The notes under the pieces are model-generated. The model saw only the letters and a program-made list of their open reading frames with translations. It did no database searches and was not told the DNA's origin. The translations under genes and the position numbers were made by a program. DNA of 53,802 bases from a virus (taxonomy: Duplodnaviria > Caudoviricetes), in IMG/VR virus record IMGVR_UViG_3300036985_003294, positions 1 to 53,802 of that record. The stretch is one strand, 5' to 3'. Each line of letters begins with the position of its first letter. Position 1 is the stretch's first letter. Positions 2,830 to 31,626 of the stretch are shown one piece after another.

Positions 2830-2840
2830 AATTTATACCC

Positions 2841-2972: not shown

Positions 2973-3961
2973 GATTTTTGAATGTAGGCTAATGCAAAGT
3001 AAGGAGGTAAATTAGCTCCAGTTCCTGAAGTTCCAGCAGAGTTAATCACAATACCTGTAGTGACTGAACCTGTGTTAGTTGAAGACAATGTTGTTAACGT
3101 ACTAGTACCACCAGCAGTCATTGCGCTTGTAGCAGATGCTGCATCATAGGTATGTACGTGACCTGCGTCAATAATGCTATGGGTATGAGTTACAACGATT
3201 GCATCTGCTGTACCGCCAAATGCATTGACAGCATAGCTACTACCAGCACCTATAATGAATCTATCTTGTAAGTTTGGTGTGCCGTTAAGACCGTCACATA
3301 AGAACCAACCTGCGGGAATACTTCCTATTGAGCCTGACCACATGACAATGCCGCCAGATGGGAAGAAGGTGCCCACAATAGCTCCGGTAGCTCCATTTAA
3401 AGTAGTAACACCTGTATTAGTAACTGTAACGTCACCAGCTGCAGCTGAAAGGTTTATACCCGTTCCGCCGGCTATCGTCTTAACCCCTGCGTTAGTAACC
3501 GTTGCAACAGTACCAACTGTATTTACAGACATACCTGCACCTGCTGAAACACTTATCTCATTAAGCACAGCATTGAAGTTAACACCATCACAGTAGACAA
3601 TTTGCCTAGTACCAGATGGGATATTTACAGACGTGCCTGATGCTGCTCTAATGTTAATTGCAAAGCCACCAATCGTACTATTTTTTACAATATATACTTT
3701 CTTAACTAGTGGGGCAATAACATCTCTAACTGCGGTATTAGTTCCACCGATAACAAGAACTGACTGCCGTGCTTCATCCGTTACACCATTAAGGTTAGTT
3801 AACGTGTAGTTTGCGTCTATCATTGTTACTGCAACAACGCCTACTATAGATTGCTCAAGTAAGGTTCCAAGATTGGAATTAGTCGTTACGTTCCATGATC
3901 CAATTTTTTCCCCAGCACCTATAAGCTCTAGACGTAAGGAAGGTGAATAAGTACTAGGCAA
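2969..3961 (-). CDS. Tail fibre protein with tail-collar domain (TTG start)
   Basis: PSGGIVMWSG..IPAGWFLCDG.NGTPNLQDRFIIGAG collar motif; NLPPYFALAYIQK C-terminus. Confidence 0.85.
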   Translation of the reverse strand: MPSTYSPSLRLELIGAGEKIGSWNVTTNSNLGTLLEQSIVGVVAVTMIDANYTLTNLNGVTDEARQSVLVIGGTNTAVRDVIAPLVKKVYIVKNSTIGGFAINIRAASGTSVNIPSGTRQIVYCDGVNFNAVLNEISVSAGAGMSVNTVGTVATVTNAGVKTIAGGTGINLSAAAGDVTVTNTGVTTLNGATGAIVGTFFPSGGIVMWSGSIGSIPAGWFLCDGLNGTPNLQDRFIIGAGSSYAVNAFGGTADAIVVTHTHSIIDAGHVHTYDAASATSAMTAGGTSTLTTLSSTNTGSVTTGIVINSAGTSGTGANLPPYFALAYIQKS

Positions 3962-7062: not shown

Positions 7063-8280
7063 TTAAGAGAGGATTGCTACAACGAATGACTGGTGGGCAG
7101 TTATTTTAAACCAAGTTGTAAGCGCACCTACTTGTTTAGGGCTTGAGTAATTAGTTGTATTGCCTAAACCTAATCTTCCTGACCCGTTATTGCCCCAAGA
7201 CCATAATGTTTTGTTAGTTTTCAAAGCTGTTGAAAACGTGTACCCTGCGGATACACTTAACCAATTAGTTAATGCCCCAACTTGTTTAGGGCTGGAGTAG
7301 TAAGTTATATTACCTAACCCTAATGCCCCACCAGCTCCCCCACCCCAAGACCATAATGTTCCACCTGTTTTAGTTGCTATAACATGGTACCTTCCCCCTG
7401 AGATATTGGACCAAGTTGTAAGTGCACCTACTTGCACAGGGCTTGAGTAGGAGGATGTATTACCTAGACCTAACTGACCTTGGTTATTTTGACCCCAAGA
7501 CCATAAGGTGCCATCTGTTTTTATAGCATAAGAAGTCTGCCCTGCCATGGCTATTTTAGACCAAGTGGTCAACGCCCCTACTTGTTTAGGACTTGAGTAG
7601 TAAGTTAAATTATTTAGACCCAAACTTCCTCCAGCATTATTCCCCCAAGACCAAAGAGTACCATCGGTTTTAGTTGCTAATGAGTGGAATGATGAAGAAG
7701 CTATATTTAACCAAGTTGTTAATGCTCCTACTTGTTTAGGGCTTGAGTAGTTAGTTGTGTTACCTAACCCTAACTGGCCATAATTATTTTTGCCCCAAGA
7801 CCATAAGGTTCCATCTGTTTTAGTTGCCAACTGTGAGGAAGCTGCATAGTTACCAGAAGATATGTTTAACCAATTTGTTAATGTACCAACTTGTTTAGGG
7901 CTGGAGTAGTAAGTTATATTACCTAACCCTAATTGACCCAAGTTATTTTGACCCCAAGACCATAGAGTTCCATCTGTTTTAGTTGCTAATGCTGAATTTG
8001 CTGAGCCCCCTAAAGTTAACCAAGTTGTAAGACCTCCAACTTGTTTTGGGCTTGAATAGTAAGTTGTATTTCCTAGACCTAATTGCCCAAGAACAGCATT
8101 CCCCCAAGAGTACAACCCCCCGTAAGGTGATAAATTCCCAGCAGTGGGCCAGTTGCCTTGTTTTATCCAGTATCCCGCTTGCTCCATTGTCCATACACCT
8201 GAAGCTGAACTGTTTTGATAAGCTCCTGATGGTACTACAGGTGAGGATTTCACAATTCCACCGGGATATTTTGTACTCAT
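7063..8280 (-). CDS. RCC1/BLIP-II-repeat beta-propeller protein (paralog 3)
   Basis: About 7 repeats of TDGTLWSWGxNxxGQLGLGNxTxYSSPKQVG; start taken at MSTKYPGG. Confidence 0.9.
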   Translation of the reverse strand: MSTKYPGGIVKSSPVVPSGAYQNSSASGVWTMEQAGYWIKQGNWPTAGNLSPYGGLYSWGNAVLGQLGLGNTTYYSSPKQVGGLTTWLTLGGSANSALATKTDGTLWSWGQNNLGQLGLGNITYYSSPKQVGTLTNWLNISSGNYAASSQLATKTDGTLWSWGKNNYGQLGLGNTTNYSSPKQVGALTTWLNIASSSFHSLATKTDGTLWSWGNNAGGSLGLNNLTYYSSPKQVGALTTWSKIAMAGQTSYAIKTDGTLWSWGQNNQGQLGLGNTSSYSSPVQVGALTTWSNISGGRYHVIATKTGGTLWSWGGGAGGALGLGNITYYSSPKQVGALTNWLSVSAGYTFSTALKTNKTLWSWGNNGSGRLGLGNTTNYSSPKQVGALTTWFKITAHQSFVVAILS

Positions 8281-10025
8281 AGTCTCTCTAGCCTCCACTG
8301 AATCTTATCAAAAGGCGCTTGCCACTCGCCAAATATTTCTTGTCTTATTAAAGTCATACTGTCGTAGTATGGGGTTGCTTCGCCTTCTAGTGCATATAGG
8401 AAGTAAGGCATAATCGGTGTCACCACCCAAGTGTCAATCCCCATAGCTGCAGCCAAATGGCTTACAGACGTACAACTACTTATAACTAAATCACAACTCG
8501 CTACAGCAGCTCTAGTATCTTCCCAACTATTTAGTGGTACTTGCTTAACCCACATCGGAGTAGCCTCTACACCAGCATCTCTTTGCAGACTTATAAACTC
8601 GTAGTTATCACTCTTAACAGCATCAAACATCAACTGGTAAGGAAACGCTTTGTGGTGCTCATGTTCAAACTGAGTAGAGCCTTGCCATCTTAGACCAATA
8701 CGTTTCTTTCTTCCTTTTATTGTAACAGGTTTAGGTAAATAAGGTGCGCCACTAATATCTTCTAATTCAAAGCCTAACGGTACTATAGCACTCATACCAG
8801 CAACCCAAAAGTCATGATAGATACCAAACACTGCTTCGTGCTGAATAATACTAGATACGCCTTCCACATTAACGAATAAAGACGCTAACTGACCAGAGCA
8901 AGCCACGATGACTTTACAACCCTTCTCAGCAATATACTTAGCGTATCTAACTTGGTGTATTTGATCGCCTAGACCACCTTCAAGATTTAACAGCACAATC
9001 CCTTTAGTCTTGCCATCCCACTGTGGTGTAGGTACATCTGGTTGTTTATTGCCAAAGACTCCAGCAACACGACCTCTATCTAATAACTGATAACCTTTTT
9101 GAATCTGACCTTGTCTTAAGAGATACCAACCACGATTATAAGCAGCTCTATTGTTACTTGGCTCTGTAGCCTCTAACTTCTGCGCTATGCGCCAACCTTC
9201 AGCAAAATCACCTGTAGTAGATGCAGCTAGTTGAAGGTCTAAGTCATGCAAGTCAGGCATAGTTCTAGGAGTCTCTAACCAAAACTCAGGCTGGCAGAAC
9301 GAACCGTAATAAGAACCTAGCACATCTTTTGGGTTTTCGTTATGCTGTCTTTCAAGAACAGGTTTCACATCATGCATACCTTTAGTACCATGCAACTGCT
9401 CATCATCTTCAGCTACAGTAGAACCATCAATAGCATTAAAGTCGTATTCAAAATCAGGTAATTCTAAAAAGTCATGTATCCGTTGTAGTTGCTCTTTAGG
9501 ATTAGAAATTAAGTCATCGTACTCAACAAACAAAAAGTTATCCGGTGCCGCTAAGTAACCGTTCTGTAGCGATATGTACGCAGCCTTTAAGTGATCCATC
9601 AACTGCCCAGACTCCATAAACTCATCTAAATCTTCAGGTTTGGCAATACGTACAAACGATGCCGCACAATCAGGTACAGAACGAACAGTTGCAATAATCT
9701 TTGGTTGATGTCCTAATACTTGAGCCATAGCAGACATAATCTGAGCAATAGGCCAGCCCCGTGATTTGTCAATTATAATAGGTTTATCTACATCTTCATA
9801 AAAGGCATCAATCGCACCACGCATAGTTTGCGCTAACTTTTTACGCTCTGGGTCATTTTCATTTAGTAAACCAGCAGAATGCCACGTGTTCGCCAAGCCA
9901 TCAAGAGCATGAACAAGACCTGATGTAGTAGATACATTAGTCTGTGAATTTTGGTTAAGTATAGCTGCAAGTACCGTAGAACCTGAACGTGGCACACCTG
10001 ATAGGAAATGTAATTGTTTGTTCAT
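8277..10025 (-). CDS. Sulfotransferase - TPR - GT9-like glycosyltransferase fusion
   Basis: SGVPRSGSTVL (5'-PSB), R.VPDCAAS (3'-PB); helical AAYNRGWYLL segment; EGGLGDQI..RY, RIGLRWQG and DT.A....DLVIS..TSV.HLA.A.G of GT9-like GT-B enzymes. Confidence 0.85.
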   Translation of the reverse strand: MNKQLHFLSGVPRSGSTVLAAILNQNSQTNVSTTSGLVHALDGLANTWHSAGLLNENDPERKKLAQTMRGAIDAFYEDVDKPIIIDKSRGWPIAQIMSAMAQVLGHQPKIIATVRSVPDCAASFVRIAKPEDLDEFMESGQLMDHLKAAYISLQNGYLAAPDNFLFVEYDDLISNPKEQLQRIHDFLELPDFEYDFNAIDGSTVAEDDEQLHGTKGMHDVKPVLERQHNENPKDVLGSYYGSFCQPEFWLETPRTMPDLHDLDLQLAASTTGDFAEGWRIAQKLEATEPSNNRAAYNRGWYLLRQGQIQKGYQLLDRGRVAGVFGNKQPDVPTPQWDGKTKGIVLLNLEGGLGDQIHQVRYAKYIAEKGCKVIVACSGQLASLFVNVEGVSSIIQHEAVFGIYHDFWVAGMSAIVPLGFELEDISGAPYLPKPVTIKGRKKRIGLRWQGSTQFEHEHHKAFPYQLMFDAVKSDNYEFISLQRDAGVEATPMWVKQVPLNSWEDTRAAVASCDLVISSCTSVSHLAAAMGIDTWVVTPIMPYFLYALEGEATPYYDSMTLIRQEIFGEWQAPFDKIQWRLERL

Positions 10026-10084: not shown

Positions 10085-11230
10085 TTAGGGAGTGAGGATA
10101 GCTAAGGTGTTAGAGGAACCGCTTGTTATTTTAGACCAAGTGGTTAATATACCGACTTGCTTTGGGCTTGAGTAGTCTATCAAATTACCTAAACCCAATT
10201 GACCGACATTATTTTGACCCCAAGACCAAAGGGTTCCATCTGTTTTAGTTGTCCCAATGTATCTGTACCCACCTGCTATATTAAGCCAAGTTGTTAGTGA
10301 TCCCACTTGTTTTGGGCTTGAGTAGTCAGTTGTATTACCTAGACCTAACTGACCGAAGTTGTTCTGCCCCCAGACCCATAGAGTACCCTCTGTTTTAGTT
10401 GCTATGGTAAAATAACCACCACCTGCAATCTTAGACCAAGTTGTTAATGCACCTACTTGTTTAGGGCTTGAGTAGGTGGTAATATTGCCTAAACCTAGTT
10501 GACCTTGAGCGTTATAACCCCAAGACCAGAGTGTACCATCAGTTTTCGTGGTAATTGTGTGCAGGGCACCTGCGGCTATACTTAACCACGTTGTTAGAAC
10601 CCCAACTTGCTTAGGGCTTGAATATCCAGTTGTGTTGTTTAACCCCAGCTGACCCTCGCTATTTCTACCCCAAGACCAAAGGGTACCGTCAGTTTTAGTG
10701 GCTAAGGTGTGTAAATCCCCACCAGCAATCTTTGACCAAGTAGTAAGAGCACCTACTTGCACAGGGCTTGAACGATCACTTATATCACCTAATCCCAATT
10801 GGCCCACATTGTTCTGCCCCCATGTCCATAGTGTACCATCAGTTTTAGTGGCTATTGTATGATAACCCCCACTTGCTATATTTAACCAAGTGGTAAGTGC
10901 ACCTACTTGCTTAGGACTTGAGTAGTTAGTTATGTTACCTAGACCTAACTGACCCTTATTATTATAGCCCCACGTCCATAGTGTACCATCAGTTTTAATG
11001 GTAATTGTGTGATTGCCTTTCCCTGCACTCTTAGACCAAGTTGTTAGTGCACCTACTTGTACGGGACTTGAACGATTAGTTGTATCACCTAGACCTAACT
11101 GCCCTTCGGAGTTTCTACCCCAACTATAAAGAAAAGGCAGGCCTGTCCAAGTTCCCGCAGCTACGGCTTGCATTTGACTCTGTGGGGTCCACATGCCTGA
11201 ATATTGTACGTATGGATAAATTACTGGCAT
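10085..11230 (-). CDS. RCC1-repeat protein (paralog 2)
   Basis: About 7 RCC1 repeats of ~52 aa. Confidence 0.9.
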   Translation of the reverse strand: MPVIYPYVQYSGMWTPQSQMQAVAAGTWTGLPFLYSWGRNSEGQLGLGDTTNRSSPVQVGALTTWSKSAGKGNHTITIKTDGTLWTWGYNNKGQLGLGNITNYSSPKQVGALTTWLNIASGGYHTIATKTDGTLWTWGQNNVGQLGLGDISDRSSPVQVGALTTWSKIAGGDLHTLATKTDGTLWSWGRNSEGQLGLNNTTGYSSPKQVGVLTTWLSIAAGALHTITTKTDGTLWSWGYNAQGQLGLGNITTYSSPKQVGALTTWSKIAGGGYFTIATKTEGTLWVWGQNNFGQLGLGNTTDYSSPKQVGSLTTWLNIAGGYRYIGTTKTDGTLWSWGQNNVGQLGLGNLIDYSSPKQVGILTTWSKITSGSSNTLAILTP

Positions 11231-11239
11231 TGTATTTTC

Positions 11240-12382
11240 CTAATATTTGAGGGCTATGGTGCAGGAATAACCACTTGATATCCCATACCAAGTTGTTAAT
11301 GCACCTACTTGTACTGGGCTAGAGCGATAAGTCGTGTTTCCTTGACCTAACTGACCGCTACCATTACCTCCCCAAGCCCAAAGGGCACCATCTGTTTTAG
11401 TAGCTAGTGTATGGTAGCGTCCACCTGACACGTTAGACCAAGTTGTAAGCAACCCTACTTGCACAGGACTTGACCTATTAACTATATTACCTAAACCTAA
11501 ATTTCCTTCGCCGTTATACCCCCAAGACCACAATGTTCCGTCAGTCTTAGTGGCTAAAACATAGGATGGTCCGCATGTTACTTTAGACCATGTTGTAAGT
11601 GCACCTACTTGTACTGGAGAAGATGTATCAGTAGCTGGCGATCCTGACGTACCTAGGCCTAACTGCCCCGAATCGTTTCTACCCCAAGACCATAAGGTTC
11701 CATTTGTTTTGGTTGCTACAGTATGATAAAACCCACCCGCTACATTTAACCAAGTTGTAAGTGCACCTACTTGTACAGGACTAGACCTATTAACTGTAGT
11801 TCCTGAGCCCAATTGACCGTAAGTATTCTGACCCCATGACCATAAAGTGCCATCAGTTTTAGTTGCTAGGGTAAAGTATTGACCTGCAGATACATTAAGC
11901 CAGTCCGTTAGTAATCCTACTTGCACTGGGCTTGAACGGGTAGCTACATTACCTAGACCCAATTGCCCAGCCTGATTATATCCCCAAGCCCATAGAGTGC
12001 CATCAGTTTTAGAGGCCAAGGTGTGCTGCGCCCCACCTGCTACGTTAGACCAATTAGTAAGAGTCCCTACTTGCTTAGGGCTTGAGTAGTAAGTTAAATT
12101 ACTCAGCCCTAATTGACCTCTGTTATTACGCCCACAAGCCCAAAGAGTACCGTTGGTTTTAGTACTTATTGTGAAATTTTCACCTGATGTAATGTTTAAC
12201 CAAGTTGTTAATGCACCTACTTGCTTAGGACTTGAGTAACTAGTTGTATTGCCAAGACCTAACTGACCATCAGTGTTTAACCCCCAACTCCACATCTCAT
12301 AGGTATAGGCACTAGGCGTAGGAGCAACCAAAGGGTTAAAGAGCCCTGCTTGTATGAACCCTGCTAAATATCTTTGCGACAT
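11240..12382 (-). CDS. RCC1-repeat protein (paralog 1)
   Basis: About 7 RCC1 repeats of ~52 aa. Confidence 0.9.
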   Translation of the reverse strand: MSQRYLAGFIQAGLFNPLVAPTPSAYTYEMWSWGLNTDGQLGLGNTTSYSSPKQVGALTTWLNITSGENFTISTKTNGTLWACGRNNRGQLGLSNLTYYSSPKQVGTLTNWSNVAGGAQHTLASKTDGTLWAWGYNQAGQLGLGNVATRSSPVQVGLLTDWLNVSAGQYFTLATKTDGTLWSWGQNTYGQLGSGTTVNRSSPVQVGALTTWLNVAGGFYHTVATKTNGTLWSWGRNDSGQLGLGTSGSPATDTSSPVQVGALTTWSKVTCGPSYVLATKTDGTLWSWGYNGEGNLGLGNIVNRSSPVQVGLLTTWSNVSGGRYHTLATKTDGALWAWGGNGSGQLGQGNTTYRSSPVQVGALTTWYGISSGYSCTIALKY

Positions 12383-15727: not shown

Positions 15728-15885
15728 TTCTTAGCCCGTTTGTTTTTAGTAAGAGGAGGAAAGCTTTTAGCTACTCCCCCTTTCTTATACATCTCTACAG
15801 CATTGGGATCGTCCTTACGGATAATCTTCTTACCTTTAGGCATCTTCGCAGGGTTAATGTCGCCCATGCCCCGTGAAGCCCTCAT
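15724..15885 (-). CDS. Small basic protein with YKKGG motif (53 aa)
   Basis: Read by eye: MRASRGMGDINPAKMPKGKKIIRKDDPNAVEMYKKGGVAKSFPPLTKNKRAKK. Confidence 0.7.
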   Translation of the reverse strand: MRASRGMGDINPAKMPKGKKIIRKDDPNAVEMYKKGGVAKSFPPLTKNKRAKK

Positions 15886-16538
15886 TAGCAGAGTCTACCT
15901 TTTGTTTTACCGCGTTGAGCAATACCATCACCACGTGATGCTGAAGACTTAACCATACCGCCAGTTTTCATACAAGATGATTTAGATTTAGCTTTAACAG
16001 AACCGCCTTTTTTCATATGTTCATTATCTTTAAAAGCCCCTCTTTTTTCAAAGTACGCTCTATCAGCATTAATACGTTTTTGTCTATCGGCATCTTCAGT
16101 ATTTGGAACTAATGCTTTAGTTATACGGGCACTTTGTTCAGCGTCACTCAAATTAGTGTCATACTTAGGTGTTGCTTTTTTAGCAGGAACTAATGCTTTA
16201 GTTATACGTCTAGCTTGTTCTGCATCACTTAAATTAGTGTCGTACTTAGGTGTTGCTTTTTTAGCAGGAACTAATGCTTTAGTTATACGTCTAGCTTGTT
16301 CTGCATCACTTAAATTAGTGTCGTACTTAGGTGTTGCTTTTTTAGCAGGAACTAATGCTTTAGTTATACGTCTAGCTTGTTCTGCATCACTTAAATTAGT
16401 GTCATACTTAGAAGACTTCTTAGCAGTAGCTGCTAAATCTGCAGGGCTAAATGTATCATTCTCTTCATCAGATACAGTGGGCATATCTTCCCATTTAATC
16501 TTTGGATTACTTGGTTTATTGTAATATTTAGTAGCCAT
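15885..16538 (-). CDS. Basic repeat-containing protein with KGG motifs and GKTKGR C-terminus
   Basis: 217 aa with ~4 x 27-aa repeats; MKKGGSVK and MKTGGMVK motifs. Confidence 0.7.
   Translation of the reverse strand: MATKYYNKPSNPKIKWEDMPTVSDEENDTFSPADLAATAKKSSKYDTNLSDAEQARRITKALVPAKKATPKYDTNLSDAEQARRITKALVPAKKATPKYDTNLSDAEQARRITKALVPAKKATPKYDTNLSDAEQSARITKALVPNTEDADRQKRINADRAYFEKRGAFKDNEHMKKGGSVKAKSKSSCMKTGGMVKSSASRGDGIAQRGKTKGRLC
16105..16409. repeat. 81-bp coding tandem repeat, ~4 copies (KYDTNLSDAEQARRITKALVPAKKATP)
   Basis: Near-identical DNA units visible at 81-bp period. Confidence 0.9.
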
Positions 16539-16804
16539 TATACAAACCTACCTTTTGTTTTACCACGTTGAGCGCAGCCATCGGCTTTAGAAGAAGCTGA
16601 AGATTTAACTGAGCCGCCTGATTTATAATACTTTGAGCCACTAAAGTCTTTACTAGGGGAATCTCCTAAACCGAACTTCTTACTTAACTCAGCATCACGT
16701 TTAGATTCACGTTGATCCTTTGCTAAATCTGCCATTTTACGTTGTTCATTAGCATTTAGTACTTCAGTTTTATTTGCATCAGGTTCTACTTTTTTAGTAG
16801 CCAT
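16538..16804 (-). CDS. Small basic protein (YKSGGSVK; ADG..GKTKGRFV)
   Basis: 88 aa; C-terminal motif shared with neighbours. Confidence 0.7.
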   Translation of the reverse strand: MATKKVEPDANKTEVLNANEQRKMADLAKDQRESKRDAELSKKFGLGDSPSKDFSGSKYYKSGGSVKSSASSKADGCAQRGKTKGRFV

Positions 16805-17193
16805 TATACGAACCTACCTTTAGTCTTACCTTTAGTTGCAACGCCGTCAGCAGCTTTTACAAAACCACCAGCTCTATAACATTTACCACCAGCTTTCATT
16901 TTTTTAGCAGGTTCAGACTTCTCACCTTTAGCGTATTGCATAGGGGTAATCTTACCAGACTTAATAGCTTTCGCTTCTTTAAGCTCTTCGCTTACAGACT
17001 CTTTGCCTTTAAACATGTTCTTTAGATCAACTTTTTTAGCTGCCATTTTACCACCCTCGTTAAATTTCTTACCTTTATCAGCGGCAGCAAAGTCTTTTCC
17101 TACCGATTGCGGAACACCCGCTTTTTTAGCAAACTTAGGACTATGAGCAATCATCTCCATAAAGTTATGTTGTTTAATACTTTTAGAAGGAAT
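16804..17193 (-). CDS. Small basic protein, probable ATT start (MPSKSIKQHNFMEMIAH...)
   Basis: AAGGAG-N7-ATT extends the ORF-track ORF by 11 codons in frame; GG motifs and GKTKGRFV end. Confidence 0.7.
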   Translation of the reverse strand: MPSKSIKQHNFMEMIAHSPKFAKKAGVPQSVGKDFAAADKGKKFNEGGKMAAKKVDLKNMFKGKESVSEELKEAKAIKSGKITPMQYAKGEKSEPAKKMKAGGKCYRAGGFVKAADGVATKGKTKGRFV

Positions 17194-17222
17194 TTGCGTT
17201 CTCCTTAATCTTGGTATATACT
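17194..17222 (+). promoter_or_regulatory. sigma70-like promoter for HNH gene
   Basis: TTGCGT-N17-TATACT. Confidence 0.6.
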
Positions 17223-17254
17223 ATCATTATCAATTTAACTATAGAGAAAAGATA

Positions 17255-17779
17255 ATGCCTAAAAAACTTACTTGTAAATACTGTAACATATGTGGTATCC
17301 CAGTACTAGGAATAAAGAGGAAAGATAGAAACGCCTACCATTACCCACCTAGATGTACAACTTGTTCTCGTAAAGCTTTTGACCCAGAAGTTATTGCTAC
17401 CAAACTTCGAGTTATTTCTGAAATACGAAAACCATCATCCCCTATTGGTGCTACAAGAATACATAAAAGTAAAGAAAACTTAAACTATATAGTAATCAAA
17501 ATAGCAGAACCTAATGTTTGGAAATATGAGCATCGAGTTATAACAAATGCTAAATCCTCTCAACAAGTCCATCATATTAACGGTAATACCTTAGATAATC
17601 GGTTAGAAAATCTTGTTCTACTGTCTCCTAAAGAACACCGCATTGAACATGGCTTACAACAAAAATGGTCTAGAGCCTTTGAATCTTGTGTAGAGTGCAA
17701 ATCTACTTTACGTAAACATTTATCTCTTGGGTTATGTACTGCATGTTATCAAAGACTTAAATACATTCCGACTAAATGA
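17255..17779 (+). CDS. HNH homing endonuclease, antisense to structural operon
   Basis: YEHRVI...VHHINGNTLDNRLENL.L....H; CxxC pairs. Confidence 0.85.
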   Translation: MPKKLTCKYCNICGIPVLGIKRKDRNAYHYPPRCTTCSRKAFDPEVIATKLRVISEIRKPSSPIGATRIHKSKENLNYIVIKIAEPNVWKYEHRVITNAKSSQQVHHINGNTLDNRLENLVLLSPKEHRIEHGLQQKWSRAFESCVECKSTLRKHLSLGLCTACYQRLKYIPTK

Positions 17780-17780
17780 T

Positions 17781-18047
17781 TTACTTGGCACCGCACTTCC
17801 ACCTTTTTAATGATGCGGCCTTACGTGTTGGGTTGCCACTCTCATCCTTCATAGGACCCGGCATACCTGACATTCTAGCACAAAATGATTTCTTTCTTGG
17901 ACCGCCTTCTGGTTGAGGTGCTTTTAAGTTAGAGCCTGTAGCATTGTTATACTTGGATCGGCCTTTGGCAGTCAAACCTGCACCCTTAGACACAGGTAAC
18001 TTCTCACCTCTACCAACTGATAAAACTGGAGCTTTTTTAGTAGCCAT
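17781..18047 (-). CDS. Conserved basic phage protein (NLKAP...RKKSFCARM...LKRWKC)
   Basis: 88 aa; motif typical of aquatic phage structural regions. Confidence 0.65.
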   Translation of the reverse strand: MATKKAPVLSVGRGEKLPVSKGAGLTAKGRSKYNNATGSNLKAPQPEGGPRKKSFCARMSGMPGPMKDESGNPTRKAASLKRWKCGAK

Positions 18048-18340
18048 TAGTGTTTAACCATATCAATAAACCAAGTAATAAGAGTAGCTACAGATGCGCC
18101 TATACCCCCAACCACTAGTAACAACTTCCATCCACCTTTAGCTTCAGAGAGTATTACACCGATATTTTTAAGAGCTTCTTTTATCTCATCAATATCTTTA
18201 ACCATTTTATCCATATCTGCCTGTAAATGCCTTATGTCTGCACTATGGGTAGCAAGCTCTCTTACTGTTTGCATTGCCGGGTCGTCCAATCTTTGATGTT
18301 CCATATTATATAGAGTATCTGAGTTGTGTGGTTGGGTCAA
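18047..18340 (-). CDS. Coiled-coil protein with C-terminal TM segment
   Basis: LSEAKGGWKLLLVVGGIG... hydrophobic tail. Confidence 0.55.
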   Translation of the reverse strand: MTQPHNSDTLYNMEHQRLDDPAMQTVRELATHSADIRHLQADMDKMVKDIDEIKEALKNIGVILSEAKGGWKLLLVVGGIGASVATLITWFIDMVKH

Positions 18341-20919
18341 TCATTGTTTCTGCCCCATACAGTAATGTAAGAACCCGCAAGAAGGCCAAGACCTATAGCG
18401 GCTGGAACAACTGCTGCATTGGTCGCATACGACACCAAACTAATGGCGTTTATTCTGGTTGTCGTGTTAATCCACATACCCGCTGTTTGGAACATGATGG
18501 GTGGTGTTGCCGCTGTAGGGCCTCCCGCATATTGCCCTTCCCCATGCATCCGTTTAAGTGCCAGTGGGGGGTTGTTAATATCCATTGTTCCCCATCTAGC
18601 TACGTTAGTTGGTGTGCCTCCCGCTGTAGGCCAGCCGGGAATACTAGGTGTATTTGTAACAACTCCTGCCACTAGAAGGGCGGTTACAATCTGCTTAGCA
18701 GTCATCAGGATCGCCGTCTCGTTAGGTGTAGTAGTACCCACTACTACCCTTGCAATAGCTGCACCTGCGTACCCTGCGATATAATACTCAACCCTTAATT
18801 GTAGGAATGGGACTGTCCATGAGACCGTAGATGTGCGAATGGCAGTCGCTGTTAGAGGGGTACTGGTACCTAAAAAAACCCAGTTTTTACCCCCTGTTGC
18901 TGCGGTAGAATTTAGCATTGCTCTAGTGACTGTATTAGCCCCCATAGCATTGGCTGTGCCCGCAGTTAAACCTGAAGCAGTGCCTGTACAGTTTGTTAAT
19001 ACACCACTAGAAGGTGTACCTAGTACACCACCATTAACTAATACCGACCCAGCAGTTCCCACCGCTACGCCTAATGCCGTTGTTACATCAGCGCCTGTAA
19101 GAATAGTAGACGGAGCAATACCTGCACCCCCCCCAATAACTAAAGAGTTTGCAGCTAACGCAGCAGAAGTAGCCCACGCTGTACCGCTTGAGAAATAAGG
19201 AATACCACCGGATGTACCTGCTACAGTAAGAGCGGGTGTAGTTGTAGGAGTTGCTACCGAGATTAAACCCCCAGTAAAACCTACAGAAGTTACTGTACCA
19301 CTGCCCCCGCCACCGCCAGCAGGTGTTGCCCATGTACCATCACCACGCCAGAATGTAGTAGCTGATGCTGAAGTACCACTATCAAGCGCACTAACAGCTA
19401 CTGCCAAAGTTCCACCTAATGTTAAAGAACCCGAAGATGTAACCGTACCGCTTAAAGATAATCCTGATACAGTGCCTGTTCCACCAATGCTAGTAACTGT
19501 ACCTTGAGGGTTTGCAGCTGTAGTGAGAGCCGTTATTTGGCCTTGACCATTAGTAGTGATAACTGGAATTAATGTAGAAGAGCCAACAGCAGTAGCGGCG
19601 GAACCAACATTGGTAATAGAAAATTGATTAGTAGCTAGTGTTAGCCCAGTACCTGCAGTGTATGTTTGTGCAGCTGCAAATTCTATAAAAACTAAAGCAG
19701 TTGTACCTATTACTATAGGTAAAGGAGTTTGTTGCACCCAAGATGTGTTAGCATTAGTAGGGCCAGATATAACCAGCAACATGTCGCCTTGATCTACTTC
19801 ATTTGTGCCTGATCCGCTAGTATCATAATCTAAAGCTCTTGTAAGAATATAAGGCAGTAATGTAGTACCTACCCGTGTAACTGTATAAACACCGTTGTTA
19901 GCTTGAGTTGCTTCATTCTTAATTAATACACGTTGTGTGACTAAAGGTGTAGTTCCATCTACAGATACATCGCCATTAGCATTACCTGTAAGAGTAGCCC
20001 CAACTCCTAAAGTTCCGTTATTATAAGTATTAGCCGCTAGAGCTACTGTTGTAGCGTAGTTACAAGCAGCATGAAAATTAACCCCTGCAGCTATACTATC
20101 AGCGTAAGACTTATTAACTATGTCTGTACTAGATGTAGGGGCTGTAGATATCGTACCTGTAGTCAAAGCTACAGAAGGTAGCCATGTTGGGTTTGAATAG
20201 GAGCCATTAGAGTAGAGGCCATTAGTTACAGTAGCCGCATTACCACTAGTGTTTTGATTCCATATAGGTACAGTTCCAGTAAGTCCTGAGTATGGGACAT
20301 TAGTAGCTGTAGCTGCATTACCACTAGTGCTTTGATTCCATGTAGGCACAGTACCTGTTAGGCCTGAGTATGGGACATTAACCGCTGTTGTAGCAGTCGT
20401 AGCTGTTGTAGCGGTAGTTGCTGTTGTAGCTGTTGTAGCTGTTGTAGCTGTTGTAGCTGTTGTAGCTGTGGCTGCATTACCAGTAGTGTCTTGGTTCCAT
20501 GTAGGAATAGTACCAGTAAGGCCAGAATAGGGAGTATTATTAGCAGTATTTGCCGTTGTAGCAGTTAATGCATTACCAGTAGTGCTTTGGTTTAGTATTG
20601 GGAAGTCACCATTAGAGGCTACTGCGAGTGCCCCTGCGCTTCCTTTTAATATCCCAGTAATTGAGGTAGATAGTGTTATTGCAGGTGTCGTTGTAGAAGT
20701 TGCTACTGTACCCGTAAACCCATTTGCACTAACTACAGATGTATCAGTAACGGTACCACTACCTCCGCCCCCACTAGGAATCCAGCCACTAGTAGATAAT
20801 ACATAACCTATTTCAGCTATTAGTGGGGCTGGAGCTTCTCCTTGGATACCGTCAGCAGAGCCAGTTGGGGATGTGAACACCCCAAAATCAACTATCCCTG
20901 AATGAGGGGCAACAGACAT
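18337..20919 (-). CDS. Long tail fibre protein, T/G/S/A-rich
   Basis: GTVTSV repeats, NKSYAD, RVLIKNE....NGVY.V...LTRA.D motif, GNAATAT repeats. Confidence 0.8.
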   Translation of the reverse strand: MSVAPHSGIVDFGVFTSPTGSADGIQGEAPAPLIAEIGYVLSTSGWIPSGGGGSGTVTDTSVVSANGFTGTVATSTTTPAITLSTSITGILKGSAGALAVASNGDFPILNQSTTGNALTATTANTANNTPYSGLTGTIPTWNQDTTGNAATATTATTATTATTATTATTATTATTATTAVNVPYSGLTGTVPTWNQSTSGNAATATNVPYSGLTGTVPIWNQNTSGNAATVTNGLYSNGSYSNPTWLPSVALTTGTISTAPTSSTDIVNKSYADSIAAGVNFHAACNYATTVALAANTYNNGTLGVGATLTGNANGDVSVDGTTPLVTQRVLIKNEATQANNGVYTVTRVGTTLLPYILTRALDYDTSGSGTNEVDQGDMLLVISGPTNANTSWVQQTPLPIVIGTTALVFIEFAAAQTYTAGTGLTLATNQFSITNVGSAATAVGSSTLIPVITTNGQGQITALTTAANPQGTVTSIGGTGTVSGLSLSGTVTSSGSLTLGGTLAVAVSALDSGTSASATTFWRGDGTWATPAGGGGGSGTVTSVGFTGGLISVATPTTTPALTVAGTSGGIPYFSSGTAWATSAALAANSLVIGGGAGIAPSTILTGADVTTALGVAVGTAGSVLVNGGVLGTPSSGVLTNCTGTASGLTAGTANAMGANTVTRAMLNSTAATGGKNWVFLGTSTPLTATAIRTSTVSWTVPFLQLRVEYYIAGYAGAAIARVVVGTTTPNETAILMTAKQIVTALLVAGVVTNTPSIPGWPTAGGTPTNVARWGTMDINNPPLALKRMHGEGQYAGGPTAATPPIMFQTAGMWINTTTRINAISLVSYATNAAVVPAAIGLGLLAGSYITVWGRNND
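20383..20470. repeat. 9-bp coding repeat giving a (TAT)n mucin-like tract
   Basis: (GCTGTTGTA)n on + strand. Confidence 0.85.
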
Positions 20920-23106: not shown

Positions 23107-24015
23107 TCAAGCGCCGGTCGATCCGTACATACTAAGGGGGTCACTCCAGCCGAAAGAATATCTTTCGCGACTTCTGTAGCGAACATTTCCGGTGTCGAAA
23201 TCTCCTGACATGTCATTAGTGATAGGAGCACGAACAAAATGCTTCATACCATTAGGTACATCAGTAGTTAAGAACCAAGCATTGCTATCAGTCAAGAAAT
23301 GGTTAATAGCGTAACCTTGTGGGATAGAACCGTTGTTTTTCAATGCGTTTAAGTCATTGTCAGCAGTTCCTACACGTTGCTCAGTTTCCAACAAACGAGT
23401 TGCAACGAATTGCAATGCAGGTGGAACGACCAATTTTTTAGGTTTAGCCGCAATCAACAAGCCACGTTCGTCAGTCCATGCAGCGATTTGGATAACAGCC
23501 GCTTCCAAAGAAGTTTCGTTTAAATCAGCAGGAGTAGAAGGAATGTTGCTGTTAGTAGCGCCATTAACTAAAGGGTGAGCAGATGAGAACAACGCAACGC
23601 CGTCACCACCAACAAAAGCTGCAGAGAAACCGTTGTTTAAAACAGCAGCGCCTTTAACTTGTTTGGTGTAAGACATAGCACGAGCCAAACCTTTAGTATA
23701 ACGAGCAGACAAAGAGTCATACAAGTTATCTTCAATAGCTTCTTCAGTTAAAGAAAAACCTAAAGCAATAGTTTCGTGGTTGTAGCGAGCAGTCCAAGCT
23801 TCTTGAGCATTGTCATAACTAATGGCTGAGCCTTCGTTTTTGACAGGTGCTGCTGAGAAACCAGACAGTTTTGTTTCTTCTTCAAATGAACGTTCTGATG
23901 ATTCAGTTTCATAAATTTCTTTATGTTCTTCACCGTAACGAGCATATTCTAAACCGAAAAGAGCGTTAAGACCCGGAAGCAACTCTTTCAGTAATTGTGC
24001 GCGTGAAATAGCCAT
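23107..24015 (-). CDS. Major capsid protein (Mu gpT-like family)
   Basis: MAISRAQLLKELLPGLNALFG, KLVVPP.L.F.A.RLL, DFDTGN.RY..RERYSFG.SDP; highly biased codons. Confidence 0.9.
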   Translation of the reverse strand: MAISRAQLLKELLPGLNALFGLEYARYGEEHKEIYETESSERSFEEETKLSGFSAAPVKNEGSAISYDNAQEAWTARYNHETIALGFSLTEEAIEDNLYDSLSARYTKGLARAMSYTKQVKGAAVLNNGFSAAFVGGDGVALFSSAHPLVNGATNSNIPSTPADLNETSLEAAVIQIAAWTDERGLLIAAKPKKLVVPPALQFVATRLLETEQRVGTADNDLNALKNNGSIPQGYAINHFLTDSNAWFLTTDVPNGMKHFVRAPITNDMSGDFDTGNVRYRSRERYSFGWSDPLSMYGSTGA

Positions 24016-26706: not shown

Positions 26707-26894
26707 TCGTCTTCAAACTCCAGTTTCTTAGTTAGTACTTCTATGGCGCTTCGTGCCTGATCTAAGCCTTGAATTTGCCCACATATGTATTTATATGCTG
26801 CGTAATCTTCAGCCCGACCAGATGCTAACGCTTGTGTTAATAACGATATTCTGTCATCAATTTGTTTAAAGAGAATTTCCGCTTCTCTATCCAT
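26703..26894 (-). CDS. Conserved small head-module protein
   Basis: LASG...Y..YKYICGQIQGL. Confidence 0.6.
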   Translation of the reverse strand: MDREAEILFKQIDDRISLLTQALASGRAEDYAAYKYICGQIQGLDQARSAIEVLTKKLEFEDE

Positions 26895-29851
26895 TATTTA
26901 GTTCCTTCAATAAGTTGGCCTGTAGGTAATGCTAAATAAGTTCCTTTCTTTTCCTGATTGACAAAGTACTCACTTAGTTTCTCAGGTGATCTATTTCTTA
27001 AGTTGTGCTCAGATGGATGAAAGTAATATCGACCTTCATCTCCTTCTTGCCATTTACCACCCTGTGCATCAGCATTAGAGTATTTACTTTGTTCTGAAAA
27101 GGTAGGGTGGTTAGGTAGCTTATAAGTATCTGGATAATGATCTTCTTCCCCTACACGAGGTTTTATCTTTCCACTTTTAACAGCTGTCTTATACCCTTCC
27201 ATATCATAATCAGAATGAATTACTCCACCCTCTTTAAAACCTTCAGGCTTTTTTTTACCTACCTCTCCTCCTTTAGTCTGGGCTTGTCTTTGTGCTTGTC
27301 TCTCAGCTTGTTGATCCAGTCGTTGCCTTTCCGCTAAGAACTTAGCATGGTCATGCTGTTGGTTAGTTTGTTGTTTCTGATGTGAACGCTCACCTTCTTT
27401 AAGGGCCACATCTACACCCAACTTTGCAGCCATCTCATCTTGTTTAGCTTTAAGAGATGCTTGAGTATCTTGCATCTTAGATGAAATTTGAGCCCCTGCA
27501 ACTTGTTGTTGTGCACCAATACGCTCACGATCAACTTGTATCTTCATCGCTTCCAACTGAGCATCAGACTGGTCTTTAGCTACTTTACGTTGTAAGTCTT
27601 GAGCTTTAAGTTGTAGCTCTTGTTGTTGCATTTGTATCAGTGGGTCTTGTTGCTTCGCTTGATTAGCTTGAGCTTGAGCTTCTTGTTGATGCTGACCTGT
27701 TAATTGCTGTGAAGCTTGAGCTGCTAGTTTGGAAATTTGCACTTCCATATCTTCAGGAATAGTTACTTGATTATCAGTATCATCTTCACCGTAGCTAGGG
27801 ATATCCATACCCATAGCTTGCTCAATTTGTTTGCGATACTCATACCCTAAATGCTCACTTATATGCGCACCCATAGTTGCTTGCAATGCTGCTAGAGCTT
27901 GTGGGTTTTGACCCATAGCTTGTTGTAGCACTGCTTGAACTTTAGGGTCTTGCATTGCGGACATGTGTACAGCAATATGAGCTTGATGGTCTTGGTACAA
28001 GAACGCTTTAACAGGCTTACCTTTAAGAATGTTCTGATTTTCTGTAACTGGGTCACGAGGTTTCATATCATCTTCCATAGGTACTAGCTTTTGGTAATTA
28101 GGTATACCTAATACTTCCAGCATTTGTCTATGTAAAACAGGTAAGTTATAAAGTTGTGGAGCACCTTGTGCTAGTTGTAAGGCTGCTTGGTACTGCACGA
28201 CCTTTTGTGCCATTGTGGAGGCATTAGGGTCTGATACAGGAAGTACGTATACCAAATCATAGTCAGCTTTCTTAGCGCGTCTGCTACCTTCTGTAGGGTC
28301 ATAATCGTATTCATCAGGGGTATAGTCTCTTATAATGTTACGTAGTAAAATAAACTCTTGCTTCATCGAGTAGTGTATACGCGACTGCACTGCACTCATT
28401 ACTTTAAGCGTTCTCTCGAGTACAGCGAGTGTTGTACCAACAGGACTATTAGAGGACATATCAGAGACAGCAAGATCAGCAGCCCCAGCAAAACGGCGAC
28501 CTTCATCGACTATACTCCCTAGCAAAGTTAATAATGTTTGACTTGGTTCTTTGTACGGCAGTGGCATAAAGTTGTCACGCATTACACCAGATGGCACATC
28601 TACATCACGCCACTCACCCGGAGCAATGGGTGTATCGTCACCCTTTACTCTTAATCCTCTAGTTTTAAAGCCCCCCGGAAGATTACTGAGAGTACCCGCG
28701 TCAACCAGTTGACGAAGGATTGAAGTACTAGACTTGGCGAAAGCACCAATAAGATGAATAAGCCCAAAACAGTAAAAGCCAAAACCTGGCACATAGCCAT
28801 AGTGAACGAAGTGATTACGTTTTTTAGAAGATTCATCGTCAGGGTCCCAATTTCTACGAATTGACAGGATTGTGTTTGTGCCTTTTTCGATAGTAACCAC
28901 GTACGGCAACGCTATATCAGTTTTCTCACCTTCGTGATCTTCGTGCTCAAAACCTTCAAGATTAATCTCAACATGCATTTCTAACAGTTTAAACCGATCA
29001 TCCGTTGATGCTCTGAAACCAAGCTTATCAGCTATCTTCTTCTCAATATCATCCATAGTATTGGAAGGTTCACCCAAATCTACATCTCTATAAAAGCCTT
29101 CATACTGTAGTCTGCGTATTTCATTCTCAGTCTTACGCATTATGTGAGTTACACGTTCTGCACTCTGTAAGTCTGCTGCACCGTACGGTACAACGATGTC
29201 TTCAGCAGGTACATACATAGCAACTTGACGACCTAAGTACGGGTCGTAGTAAACTTTCTTAAAGGCATTACCTGCCAATCCTAGACCCCATAACATGCGC
29301 TCATGCTCTGGTCTGTATTCAGTCATCACATCGGTAAGCTGGTAGTTCATGTCGTCCTGAACACGCTGTGAGGCTTCTTTCTTCTCTTCTGTTTCCTTAC
29401 CTATGATCTGTGTTTTAACTGGGCCAGACGCAGGGAATGTTGCAGTAATAGTTTCTGCTTGGAACTTAATAACAGCCTCAGTTAATAGTGGATGATACAC
29501 ACCACATGCACCTTCCCAAGGTTCTGAGCGATCTTCCATCTTAAGACCCAGCAACTCAAGCCCATCAACATAAGTTTGAACCCAATCTTTTCTTGCGCTT
29601 ACATCAGACTCAAAATCATTAATAAGCTCAGAAGCAAGTGATTGTAGAACCGAGTCATCAATTTCTTCAGCCAAGTTAGCATTGAACTTTTCCTCATCAA
29701 CTTCTTTTTGGATTTTAAGAATTTCTTGTTCGCCTAAGCTAATCGTTACTGACTCAGGGTCTTCAATCTCAATCTCTAACGGCTCTTGATCTTCTTCTAT
29801 AGGTATAGCATCTATGCCCATCGGGGCTGGGTTTACACTTTTGTCTATCAT
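26894..29851 (-). CDS. Portal protein with C-terminal extra domain
   Basis: R.DW...Y..GL.LLG, PW.GA.GV.HP, FKKVYYD, LRQLVDAGTLSNLP.GFK, Q-rich barrel; follows terminase. Confidence 0.9.
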   Translation of the reverse strand: MIDKSVNPAPMGIDAIPIEEDQEPLEIEIEDPESVTISLGEQEILKIQKEVDEEKFNANLAEEIDDSVLQSLASELINDFESDVSARKDWVQTYVDGLELLGLKMEDRSEPWEGACGVYHPLLTEAVIKFQAETITATFPASGPVKTQIIGKETEEKKEASQRVQDDMNYQLTDVMTEYRPEHERMLWGLGLAGNAFKKVYYDPYLGRQVAMYVPAEDIVVPYGAADLQSAERVTHIMRKTENEIRRLQYEGFYRDVDLGEPSNTMDDIEKKIADKLGFRASTDDRFKLLEMHVEINLEGFEHEDHEGEKTDIALPYVVTIEKGTNTILSIRRNWDPDDESSKKRNHFVHYGYVPGFGFYCFGLIHLIGAFAKSSTSILRQLVDAGTLSNLPGGFKTRGLRVKGDDTPIAPGEWRDVDVPSGVMRDNFMPLPYKEPSQTLLTLLGSIVDEGRRFAGAADLAVSDMSSNSPVGTTLAVLERTLKVMSAVQSRIHYSMKQEFILLRNIIRDYTPDEYDYDPTEGSRRAKKADYDLVYVLPVSDPNASTMAQKVVQYQAALQLAQGAPQLYNLPVLHRQMLEVLGIPNYQKLVPMEDDMKPRDPVTENQNILKGKPVKAFLYQDHQAHIAVHMSAMQDPKVQAVLQQAMGQNPQALAALQATMGAHISEHLGYEYRKQIEQAMGMDIPSYGEDDTDNQVTIPEDMEVQISKLAAQASQQLTGQHQQEAQAQANQAKQQDPLIQMQQQELQLKAQDLQRKVAKDQSDAQLEAMKIQVDRERIGAQQQVAGAQISSKMQDTQASLKAKQDEMAAKLGVDVALKEGERSHQKQQTNQQHDHAKFLAERQRLDQQAERQAQRQAQTKGGEVGKKKPEGFKEGGVIHSDYDMEGYKTAVKSGKIKPRVGEEDHYPDTYKLPNHPTFSEQSKYSNADAQGGKWQEGDEGRYYFHPSEHNLRNRSPEKLSEYFVNQEKKGTYLALPTGQLIEGTK

Positions 29852-30093: not shown

Positions 30094-31626
30094 TTAATAA
30101 TAGGCTGCTTGTCTTGGTATAAATTCTTCATGCATCTCATTAGAGTCTAAACGCAAACTTAAAAAACCACCTTTACGGAATCTTGCCATCCCCATACTCA
30201 CACAGTCAACATAATCATCGTGTTGCCCTGCAGGGAATGATGCTACTTCTTCCATTACTTCATCTGCCCATCGGGTATTAGGGACCCATACTCGGCCTGA
30301 TGCAAATATATCTGCAACAGCGTTTAAGCGTGAAATCTTATCATTACCACGGGTCGGTGTAAAATCTGATACAGGTACGCCCATTGCTCGTAATTCGTAA
30401 ATTAAAGGGGCACCAGAGGCTTTCTTTTCTATAATCAAGGCATCAGGTTCCCAATACTTATATTCCTCTAATACGACTTCCTTGAGCCTAGGAAACTCCA
30501 TACGGTCGCGCTTTGCGTCCAGCATAATAATATTAGCTTGACTAACACCGTTTTCGTCAGGGTGATAGAACACACCCCATGTAATACATGCCGAATAATC
30601 GGCTCTATTATGTTTTTCAAACGCAGTATCCCACGTTTGAAGTACAAAATCGGTAGGAGGCGGGGTTTCTTTTTCCCATCGTTGCCACCATTCCCGTTTT
30701 ACGATAGCCCCTTCTTCAGAAGTTGGATTTTGCTGGTACTGAGCTTGCCATTTAGAGACGTCAATTGCGTTTCTAGTGGACTCTAGCTCCTCAATACTCC
30801 AAAATTCAGGCCATAATGGCTTACCTGACGGTAGAATAGCAGGTAATTCTACAACACGCCACTTATCCCCACCCCCTGCTAACTCCTTTTGTTTAACTTG
30901 TCCAGTTAAATCTCGCTTAGACCAGCGAGTCTGGATGATAATAATTGCCCCACCGGGTTGTAACCGCTGTCTTGGACCTGAGGTGTACCATTCGTACACC
31001 TTATCGTAAATCTCAGGGTTACTTGCTGCTATCGCAGCCTCTTGCTCCGAGTGTGGATCATCAATAATTAGTATATCCGCACCAATACCCGTTACAGCAC
31101 CGCTTACCCCGATCGCAAAGTAGTTACCACCCGCACTGGTGTTCCATCTACCAGCTGCCTTTGAGTCAGCCTGAAGCTCTACACCGGGGAACACTTCTTG
31201 ATACAATGGGTTAGACACTAAGTTTCGAACTTTACGTCCGAAGCCTACAGCAAGTTCGGATGTGTGCGAGCACTGTATGATCTTCTTTTTAGGATACTTG
31301 CCTAAGAACCATGCAGGGAGTAGGTACGACCCAAACTCTGACTTTGTGTGCCTCGGACCAAGGTTAATTATAAGCCGCTTATTCTTGCCGTTAACCACGT
31401 TCTCAAACTCTTGTGCCATTCTGGCGTGATGGCGCCCATAGATAAAATCAGGCCAGACCTTCTGTACAAATGCGAGGAAGTTTTCTTGTGCAAAGTCACG
31501 CTCGTGACGCTTACGCAATTCCTCAATCAAGGCTATAAGCTTTGCTCGTTCACTCGCAGGTGCAGAGTTAAGCGCAGCAGTGAGAAACTTTTCATCTAAA
31601 GAAATGTCACCTAAAGGTCCGCTCAC
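30094..31626 (-). CDS. terL: Terminase large subunit
   Basis: GPRHTKS Walker A, IIDDP Walker B, QTRW, WDTA, IEKKASG, HDDYVD nuclease motifs. Confidence 0.95.
   Translation of the reverse strand: MSGPLGDISLDEKFLTAALNSAPASERAKLIALIEELRKRHERDFAQENFLAFVQKVWPDFIYGRHHARMAQEFENVVNGKNKRLIINLGPRHTKSEFGSYLLPAWFLGKYPKKKIIQCSHTSELAVGFGRKVRNLVSNPLYQEVFPGVELQADSKAAGRWNTSAGGNYFAIGVSGAVTGIGADILIIDDPHSEQEAAIAASNPEIYDKVYEWYTSGPRQRLQPGGAIIIIQTRWSKRDLTGQVKQKELAGGGDKWRVVELPAILPSGKPLWPEFWSIEELESTRNAIDVSKWQAQYQQNPTSEEGAIVKREWWQRWEKETPPPTDFVLQTWDTAFEKHNRADYSACITWGVFYHPDENGVSQANIIMLDAKRDRMEFPRLKEVVLEEYKYWEPDALIIEKKASGAPLIYELRAMGVPVSDFTPTRGNDKISRLNAVADIFASGRVWVPNTRWADEVMEEVASFPAGQHDDYVDCVSMGMARFRKGGFLSLRLDSNEMHEEFIPRQAAYY

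Follow-up and report, generated by a model that had tools for sequence, protein, structure and literature searches.

The stretch of DNA analysed here, referred to as the window, is the whole of IMG/VR virus record IMGVR_UViG_3300036985_003294 (Duplodnaviria; Caudoviricetes), 53,802 bases with a G+C content of 39.9% that are rated 88% complete. It comes from an uncultured freshwater phage that is present in lake water and sediment metagenome runs. Our subject is a gene for an HNH endonuclease that lies antisense within the start of a small virion-protein gene (the target gene), just where the target gene meets the DUF6321 gene upstream of it. The features of the locus are as follows.

17781..18047, minus strand: DUF6321 gene, 88 amino acids, C-terminus ...KRWKCGAK* (Pfam PF19846, 82.2 bits)
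17777..17791, minus strand: displaced original start, GTG CCA AGT AAA TCA, the same 15 bases that form the live start of 21 of 75 loci
17176..17776, no strand assigned: inserted element, 601 bases replacing an AAG codon of the empty allele (blastn against the relative L003; contigs of metagenome runs X4 and X14)
17255..17779, plus strand: free-standing HNH endonuclease gene, 174 amino acids, antisense to the structural operon (Pfam HNH_3)
17194..17222, plus strand: promoter-like TTGCGT-N17-TATACT for the HNH gene (motif conserved at the same offset)
17201..17206, minus strand: Shine-Dalgarno (SD) sequence AAGGAG, 7 bases before ATT, of the class used by the phage's major genes
17191..17193, minus strand: ATT, the probable AUU initiation codon at the family start position (match to phiKZ 165.1, PHROG alignment)
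16804..17193, minus strand: target virion-protein gene, 129 codons from ATT plus stop (phrog_16759; N-termini of two 'virion structural protein' PHROGs)

Based on these features and their relatives we consider it likely that a free-standing HNH homing-endonuclease gene occupies the opening codons of a conserved gene for a virion protein and carries a substitute start for it. The initial annotation of this DNA, made from its letters, had proposed that the HNH gene was inserted into a gene start and rebuilt it with recoded codons and an ATT start. All the letters that it cited are present in the sequence, and its structure and its ATT start hold, whereas the origin of the new start by recoding gives way to import, which is simpler.

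The N-terminal module of the target protein resembles phiKZ gp165.1, and the blastn match with gene 165.1 of Pseudomonas phage phiKZ starts exactly at the ATT at 17193, the 58-residue gp165.1 beginning MPSKSKKQHNFM; PHROG profiles of the module likewise align from position 1-2. At the DNA level the match (window 17066-17193, phiKZ 171677-171804) amounts to 75% nucleotide identity over 128 bases and extends to 47 Pseudomonas jumbo-phage records; it is limited to the N-terminal module, and such conservation of DNA is unusual for otherwise unrelated phages. Among 8000 candidates scored, 7904 homologues of the target protein were found at E <= 0.001, and a sequence search of PDB with it gave no match at E <= 1. 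IMG/VR holds 366 relatives of the target gene, 80 of which were fetched, and 75 of the 80 match from residue 1. The start codons of these 75 loci are GTG (51), ATG (21) and ATT (3), codons 2-3 encode Pro-Ser throughout, and 38 have a target start overlapped by the DUF6321 gene. The exact start GTG CCA AGT AAA TCA (GTGCCAAGTAAATCA) occurs in 21 loci, where it continues AAG AAA CAA CAT AAC TTC ATG GAG ATG. The expectation that relatives without the HNH gene would show GTG-PSKS continuous with the gene body is thus borne out, by the exact 15-mer in 21 of 75 loci and by empty contigs in two lake runs. As the GTG start overlaps the last codons of DUF6321 in most relatives, an element arriving at this boundary finds no spacer to land in.

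The displaced start still stands on the far side of the HNH gene, with its GTG at 17791-17789 and its last codon, TCA, ending at 17777 and forming the complement of the HNH TGA stop. It runs one base out of frame with the DUF6321 gene, whose 3' end reads ...AAG TGC GGT GCC AAG TAA, so that GTG CCA AGT AA doubles as the last four codons and stop of that gene (C G A K *), a point absent from the initial annotation. Of the 15 bases, 11 belong to the DUF6321 3' end and only ATCA lies beyond its stop; the displaced start has been retained because the DUF6321 gene needs those bases. The occurrence of P-S-K-S on both sides of the HNH gene goes beyond chance, since GTGCCAAGTAAATCA is a real start in 21 of 75 loci and Pro-Ser is present in all 75. 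The displaced GTG also opens a 19-codon dead-end frame, MPSKSFSRNVFKSLITCST* (17732-17791, minus strand), antisense to the 3' end of the HNH gene and preceded by an SD-like AAAGGTGG inside DUF6321; this frame may be translated as a by-product. P-GSP1 was considered as a relative of the locus and set aside, the DUF6321 gene being the sole gene in common.

Alignment by blastn with L003, the closest relative without HNH, breaks at 17782 and 17175, with 96.1% identity over the right flank (17175-16501) and 85.9% over the left (18305-17782). The 601 bases between the flanks comprise the antisense HNH gene, a divergent control region of 61 bases and the string AAGGAG-N7-ATT CCT TCT AAA AGT ATT. The AAG that they replace is the codon after codon 5, and the substitute covers the SD, the start and the first six codons; the element therefore brings a new SD, start and first codons to the target gene, as had been claimed. 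Substitute and native start share 7 of their first 15 bases, and P-S-K-S is kept in both.

Logan contigs from four runs of four studies (X2, X4, X6 and X14), compared over 16700-18100, show that the insertion is polymorphic. The filled allele was found on contigs covering 17178-17806 in X14 (2 differences), 17146-17806 in X2 (3), 17146-17907 in X4 (9) and 17033-17942 in X6 (41). The empty allele was found in X4 and X14, on contigs that join 17175 to 17777 with CTT between them (read on the opposite strand), so that filled and empty alleles occur together in these two runs; the depths of the contigs are contig-wide values and not allele frequencies. A second empty variant lies on a further X14 contig, and in one low-depth contig of X4 position 18047 is followed directly by 17204, the stop of a holin-like gene running into GGAG... 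without DUF6321 or HNH.

A decayed allele is found in the IMG/VR contig L086, in which the HNH gene is reduced to its last 19 codons and 516 bases of the insert are lost, with the SD and ATT kept. Its junction reads ...acataacccaag / attaaggag, and in the window the ends of the deletion correspond to two copies of a hexamer.

17209..17214, minus strand: right CCAAGA copy, one end of the L086 HNH deletion (L086 against the window)
17725..17730, minus strand: left CCAAGA copy, the other end of the L086 HNH deletion (L086 against the window)

Two further loci, L022 (GTG CCA AGT AAA AGT CTT) and L041 (GTG CCA AGT AAA AAT CTT), have starts that are old on the left and new on the right. They look like products of loss, having the form expected if the element was removed by deletion or crossover between the two PSKS copies. 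With these hybrids and L086, gain, decay and loss are all represented. These are the stages of the homing cycle.

The HNH protein matches Pfam HNH_3 at 33.6 bits (cut-off 24.8) and six PHROG HNH families, and a sequence search of PDB with it gave no match at E <= 1. Its gene is the sole copy in the record and is carried by 1 of the 80 fetched target-gene loci. A search with the protein itself led to five IMG/VR loci, all of which have the HNH gene head-to-head with a homologue of the target gene, 38-61 bases apart; L021, L207, L208 and L209 all retain the HH..N..N..H stretch. L021 has the same antisense gene with 86% amino acid identity. In L207 (58%) the DUF6321 gene ends ...GGT GCC TAG and leaves the remnant GTG CCT AGT, and the new start is GGAG-N7-GTG GTA TCT GTA TCC (MVSVS), while the nearest gene body without HNH, in L034, begins MPSRS. 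In L209 (46%) the remnant ATG CCT AGC overlaps the stop of a different upstream gene and the new start is AGGAGG-N8-ATG CCG AGC GAA AGT. L208 (45%) is head-to-head without a remnant, its target beginning ATG CCT ATT AAG AGT (MPIKS).

The HNH gene is under purifying selection, the ratio of nonsynonymous to synonymous substitution rates (dN/dS) between the window and L021 being 0.15. For the same pair dS is 0.47 in the HNH gene, 0.89 in DUF6321 and 0.76 in target codons 1-50 (one pair, with few sites), and the intergenic 62 bases carry 2 differences; the lower dS of the HNH gene agrees with transfer of the element between diverged phages, the element being younger than the sequence around it. 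The candidate HNH promoter has TTGCGT at 17194-17199 and TATACT at 17217-17222, the complement of AAGGAG lying between them. As TTGnnn-N17-TAnAnT recurs with an identical offset in the window, L021, L207 and L208, with the TTG abutting the complement of the target start codon, it has comparative support. At the same junction in another phage, L018 carries an unrelated gene of the NUMOD4+HNH_3 type on the sense strand (2346-3011), so that two different homing genes use one gene boundary; the last codons of that gene (...NKENANSF*) overlap the AAGGAG and ATT of its target gene, and L037 resembles its empty site.

Translation of the target gene probably starts at the ATT, judging by the reading frame and its relatives. 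From the ATT the sequence reads CCT TCT AAA AGT ATT AAA CAA CAT AAC TTT ATG GAG ATG; a TAG stands in frame at 17223-17221, and between it and the ATG at 17160 there is no ATG, GTG or TTG. The AUU is thus aligned with the start of the family, lies at a working distance from an SD and has no canonical start in frame upstream of it. AAGGAG occurs at 19 sites in the window, 7 of which lie 5-7 bases before open reading frames of 63-380 amino acids, including the major head protein gene, and AAGGAG-N7-ATT recurs in four other IMG/VR contigs (L018, L021, L037 and L086). The most informative is L037, which has no HNH gene: its DUF6321 stop, TAA TAA, is followed after eight bases by AAGGAG AAGGCGT ATT CCA TCA AAA TCA GCC and then by AAA CAA CAT CGC TTT TTC GAG ATG, so that Phe stands at the window's Met12 and the first in-frame ATG is codon 14. 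Between the window and L037, the proportions of synonymous (pS) and nonsynonymous (pN) differences are 0.64 and 0.26 in codons 2-11, and 0.75 and 0.19 in codons 12-45, whose coding nature is not in doubt. As the codons before the first ATG diverge in this manner and L037 has Phe at Met12, the eleven codons before the first ATG appear to be translated, which would require initiation at the ATT.

A short upstream frame, from the ATG at 17227 to the TAA at 17183, was considered as a coupling device and rejected, L021 having ATA at that place. A pattern search of IMG/VR without the SD returned 14 stretches, 3 from known contigs and 11 unrelated, and no new ATT allele. A metagenome search with GGAG-N6-9-ATTCCNWSNAAR-N6-AARCA, a pattern that proved too loose, returned 119 stretches, and the loci fetched were without the target gene by tblastn.

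To judge from the starts of relatives, the most likely origin of the substitute start is import from a sister lineage whose target gene has its own SD, rather than recoding in place. In L054, which has neither DUF6321 nor HNH, TAAGGAG-N7-GTG CCT TCT AAA AGT ATT AAA CAA stands right after a holin-like gene, and L051 and L074 have starts of the form ATG CCT/CCC TCT AAA AAT/AGT. In a tree of residues 13 to the end, with 50 rows (48 of the 75 loci, the window and L207; the 27 loci omitted are mostly near-duplicate contigs), ATT alleles are scattered over three positions: the window amid GTG alleles, with 97% identity to L003 without HNH; L018 and L021 with L022, L041 and L054; and L037 with L051 in a clade supported 98/96. 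As the L054 start is native and L037 has an ATT without HNH, import is the simpler origin and recoding in place is unneeded.

Accepting the import of a substitute start with the HNH gene, we propose the following course. The target gene would be translated from the AUU at 17193 behind the strong AAGGAG. The block of SD, start and PSKS(I/L) would be native to the sister lineage with a non-overlapping gene (GTG in L054, ATT in L037) and would have entered the overlap lineage as co-converted flank during movement of the nuclease, which would cut empty alleles close to the start codon. By its divergence from the old start, with 7 of 15 bases shared, the new one may aid immunity and hamper deletion between the two copies. 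With the presumed old site already split by the insertion alone, immunity need not stem from the new codons. The starts linked to HNH genes do deviate at otherwise invariant positions, by ATT, by Val2 (L207) and by Ile3 (L208), in four lineages, and these deviations are suggestive of self-immunity. It is possible, and we offer it tentatively, that an HNH lineage of long divergence, with members down to 45% protein identity, is specialised on the first codons of the target and travels as a cassette of three parts, namely the substitute SD, start and codons, the nuclease, and between them a compact promoter, divergent in direction, with its -35 directly against the start codon. The deviant starts (AUU, Val2 and Ile3) would then be immunity mutations tolerated by virtue of the strong SD, and the AUU a by-product of self-protection.

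In the version closer to the initial annotation, insertion was followed by selection that recoded the doubled first codons on the spot, so that the element's own nuclease no longer recognised them, the ATT being part of the escape. Such an origin would account for the switch of both Ser codons between codon boxes in opposite directions (AGT to TCT, and TCA to AGT) together with a changed start codon and an unchanged P-S-K-S, and for the contrast between the HNH-linked starts ATT, MVSVS and MPIKS and a family with Pro-Ser in 75 of 75 loci and ATG or GTG in 72 of 75. We nevertheless regard it as unlikely: CCT TCT AAA AGT ATT stands behind AAGGAG-N7 in L054 without any HNH gene, with similar codons in L051 and L074, the ATT of L037 has its own SD, no HNH and a divergence in step with the gene body, and the halves of the old site are already 600 bases apart through the insertion.

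A different doubt concerns the ATT stretch itself, which could be an untranslated relic, the protein beginning at Met12 (MEMIAH) or Met50 without the conserved first residues. Numerous homologues in the databases are called from MEMIAH or MRAIAH, residues 50-129 are all that L049 and L072 possess, and AUU is generally a weak initiator (see also PMC5499595). We find this improbable, as no SD lies ahead of the ATG at 17160 or 17154 whereas AAGGAG-N7 lies ahead of the ATT, as the frame and P-S-K-S-x-K-Q-H-x-F are kept across ATT alleles despite near-saturated synonymous change, and as Met12 is replaced by Phe in L037. The short calls are made for GTG alleles too (MRAIAH types) and therefore reflect a habit of the callers rather than biology; we likewise discarded the number of database proteins beginning MEMIAH as a count of ATT alleles, since callers shorten GTG alleles alike.

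That the insert is an intron, its splicing joining GTG CCA AGT AAA TCA to ATT AAA CAA to give MPSKS-IKQHNF, is very improbable: the join of 17777 to 17178 is in frame and gives a family-like N-terminus, but the nuclease gene is antisense, the presumed first exon ends in A and not in the U that is the rule for group I, L086 still has SD and ATT after losing 516 bases of the insert, L037 has an ATT start without an upstream exon, and cmscan of 16500-18400 with 4227 Rfam families at E <= 10 found no group I, group II or other intron family, its sole match being a chance CRISPR-DR4 (E 4.3). An assembly or sequencing error for ATG, suggested by the rarity of ATT starts and nothing else, has a negligible chance of being correct, since ATT is present in four other IMG/VR contigs with differing surroundings and since in four runs, each from a different study, contigs extend across the element, with 2-9 differences in all and those listed lying elsewhere; the ATT is genuine.

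Several observations weigh against the proposal of a homing gene with a substitute AUU start. The identity of the metagenome contigs with the window at 17191-17193 is deduced from the small number (2-3) of their total differences. The ATT start is based on five sequences, three of which (the window, L021 and L086) share one recent element, and L018 has an in-frame ATG 8 codons upstream of its ATT, which thus need not be the start in that phage. In L049 (1940-1980) and L072 (2985-3025) residues 1-49 of the target protein are lost, along with the presumed nuclease site; residues 50-129 remain, and the NEGGK codons provide the SD for the internal Met at which the gene restarts. Some phages can therefore do without the N-terminal module, and given these two loci a start at an internal Met is conceivable in the window as well. 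The -35-like hexamer TTGCGT agrees with the consensus at 3 of 6 positions only, and a consensus promoter scan, with 3 sites against 5.5 in shuffles, did not report TTGCGT-N17-TATACT; of the promoter proposed earlier for the HNH gene, the geometry recurs in diverged relatives while the match itself falls below the threshold of the scan. Finally, among the genomes compared none has the antisense HNH gene in the proposed donor arrangement, that is, in the lineage with its own SD.

The surroundings of the locus are those of a structural module on the minus strand, which was laid out from PHROG matches.

30094-31626, minus strand: terminase (PHROG)
26894-29851, minus strand: portal (PHROG)
23107-24015, minus strand: major head protein (PHROG)
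18337-20919, minus strand: tail fibre (PHROG)

The HNH locus lies directly downstream of the tail fibre gene, amid small genes that are mostly linked via overlapping TAATG. Three consecutive genes (217, 88 and 129 amino acids; 15885-17193 of the window, minus strand) are joined in this manner, and their proteins share the C-terminal motif GG-x-[VC]-K ... DG-x-A-x-[KR]-GKTKGR-[FL]-[VC], so that they look like a family of small virion proteins with a common C-terminal signal. The N-terminus MATK is found in two of the three and in the DUF6321 protein. The 217-residue protein (15885-16538, minus strand) contains four tandem units of 33 residues (KYDTNLSDAEQARRITKALVPAKKATP...), the DNA copies of which are nearly identical. 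Thr-Ala-Thr occurs eight times in a row in the 860-residue tail-fibre protein, which also contains VPYSGLTGT[IV]P[TI]WNQ as several near-repeats. Three genes with RCC1-like repeats lie in the tail region on the minus strand, at 7063-8298, 10085-11230 and 11240-12382 (PHROGs 'regulator of chromosome condensation').

Homing genes are generally taken to survive only in harmless places, namely introns, inteins and intergenic gaps. The present locus suggests a fourth option in phages, which is to invade an overlapping coding start and to bring along a replacement for the start that is broken; a selfish gene can enter a coding start without destroying its target. It would also be an example from nature, with comparative support, of AUU initiation in a structural gene of a phage; standard callers miss this start and call the gene 11 codons short. 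The filled, empty, decayed and hybrid alleles form a ready system for the study of target recognition and self-immunity of an HNH enzyme.

The textbook AUU start is that of infC, in which the AUU serves autoregulation by IF3. The target gene resembles infC in having AUU where the start codon belongs, with a good SD ahead of it, and differs in that the window holds no sign of an autoregulatory loop and in that the AUU travels with the mobile element or predates it.

As a homing gene the element belongs with the free-standing kind: it encodes a protein of an HNH family, it has clean empty alleles, it lies outside any intron or intein and it is spread across diverged backgrounds. In PMC2988022 the seg and mob genes of T4 are described as free-standing, intergenic, mostly co-oriented with their neighbours and often without a promoter, and host promoters embedded in some of them as favouring their retention. 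The window element is like these cases of 'intronless homing' in that an HNH nuclease gene outside an intron occupies a given site in some close relatives and is missing from it in others, taking flanking DNA along when it moves, and in that embedded expression signals for a neighbouring host gene favour its retention. Unlike them, it lies inside a coding start at an overlap of two genes, in antisense, and supplies the SD, the start and the first codons.

An HNH gene within a coding sequence has a precedent in the nrdA gene of Aeromonas phage Aeh1. In the 'genes in pieces' study of Friedrich et al. (2007), both nrdA pieces of Aeh1 were reportedly translated and found to reassemble as protein. 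That nrdA is split by insertion of mobE is mentioned in PMC8351571. As in Aeh1, a free-standing HNH gene interrupts a phage coding sequence whose function is kept; unlike there, the upstream piece in the window is of 5 codons and is replaced, not reused.

In mechanism the element is like endonuclease open reading frames of fungal mitochondria (mORFs), which carry a foreign, diverged C-terminal gene end that displaces the native one; PMC3630166 names atp6 of Allomyces macrogynus and atp6, atp9, cox2 and nad3 of Glomus. By that account, in both an endonuclease open reading frame sits in a gene with a diverged copy of the gene end in frame with the body and differing at synonymous sites, and in both the displaced native end is near-identical to the relatives' copy (in the window, identical in 21 of 75 loci). 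The mORFs described there replace the 3' end, are often fused in frame and encode LAGLIDADG or GIY-YIG enzymes, whereas the window element replaces the 5' end, has a phage host and an HNH enzyme, and has its displaced end kept by the need of the upstream gene. As it is the 5' end that is replaced, a ribosome-binding site and a start codon must travel too. A search of open-access papers and preprints found no case of a phage homing element replacing the 5' end of a gene. The element works as the mitochondrial class does, in mirror image at the 5' end, and is not a member of it, since the substitute in that class is a 3' end; it is a new form of free-standing homing element, to be set beside an otherwise known kind.

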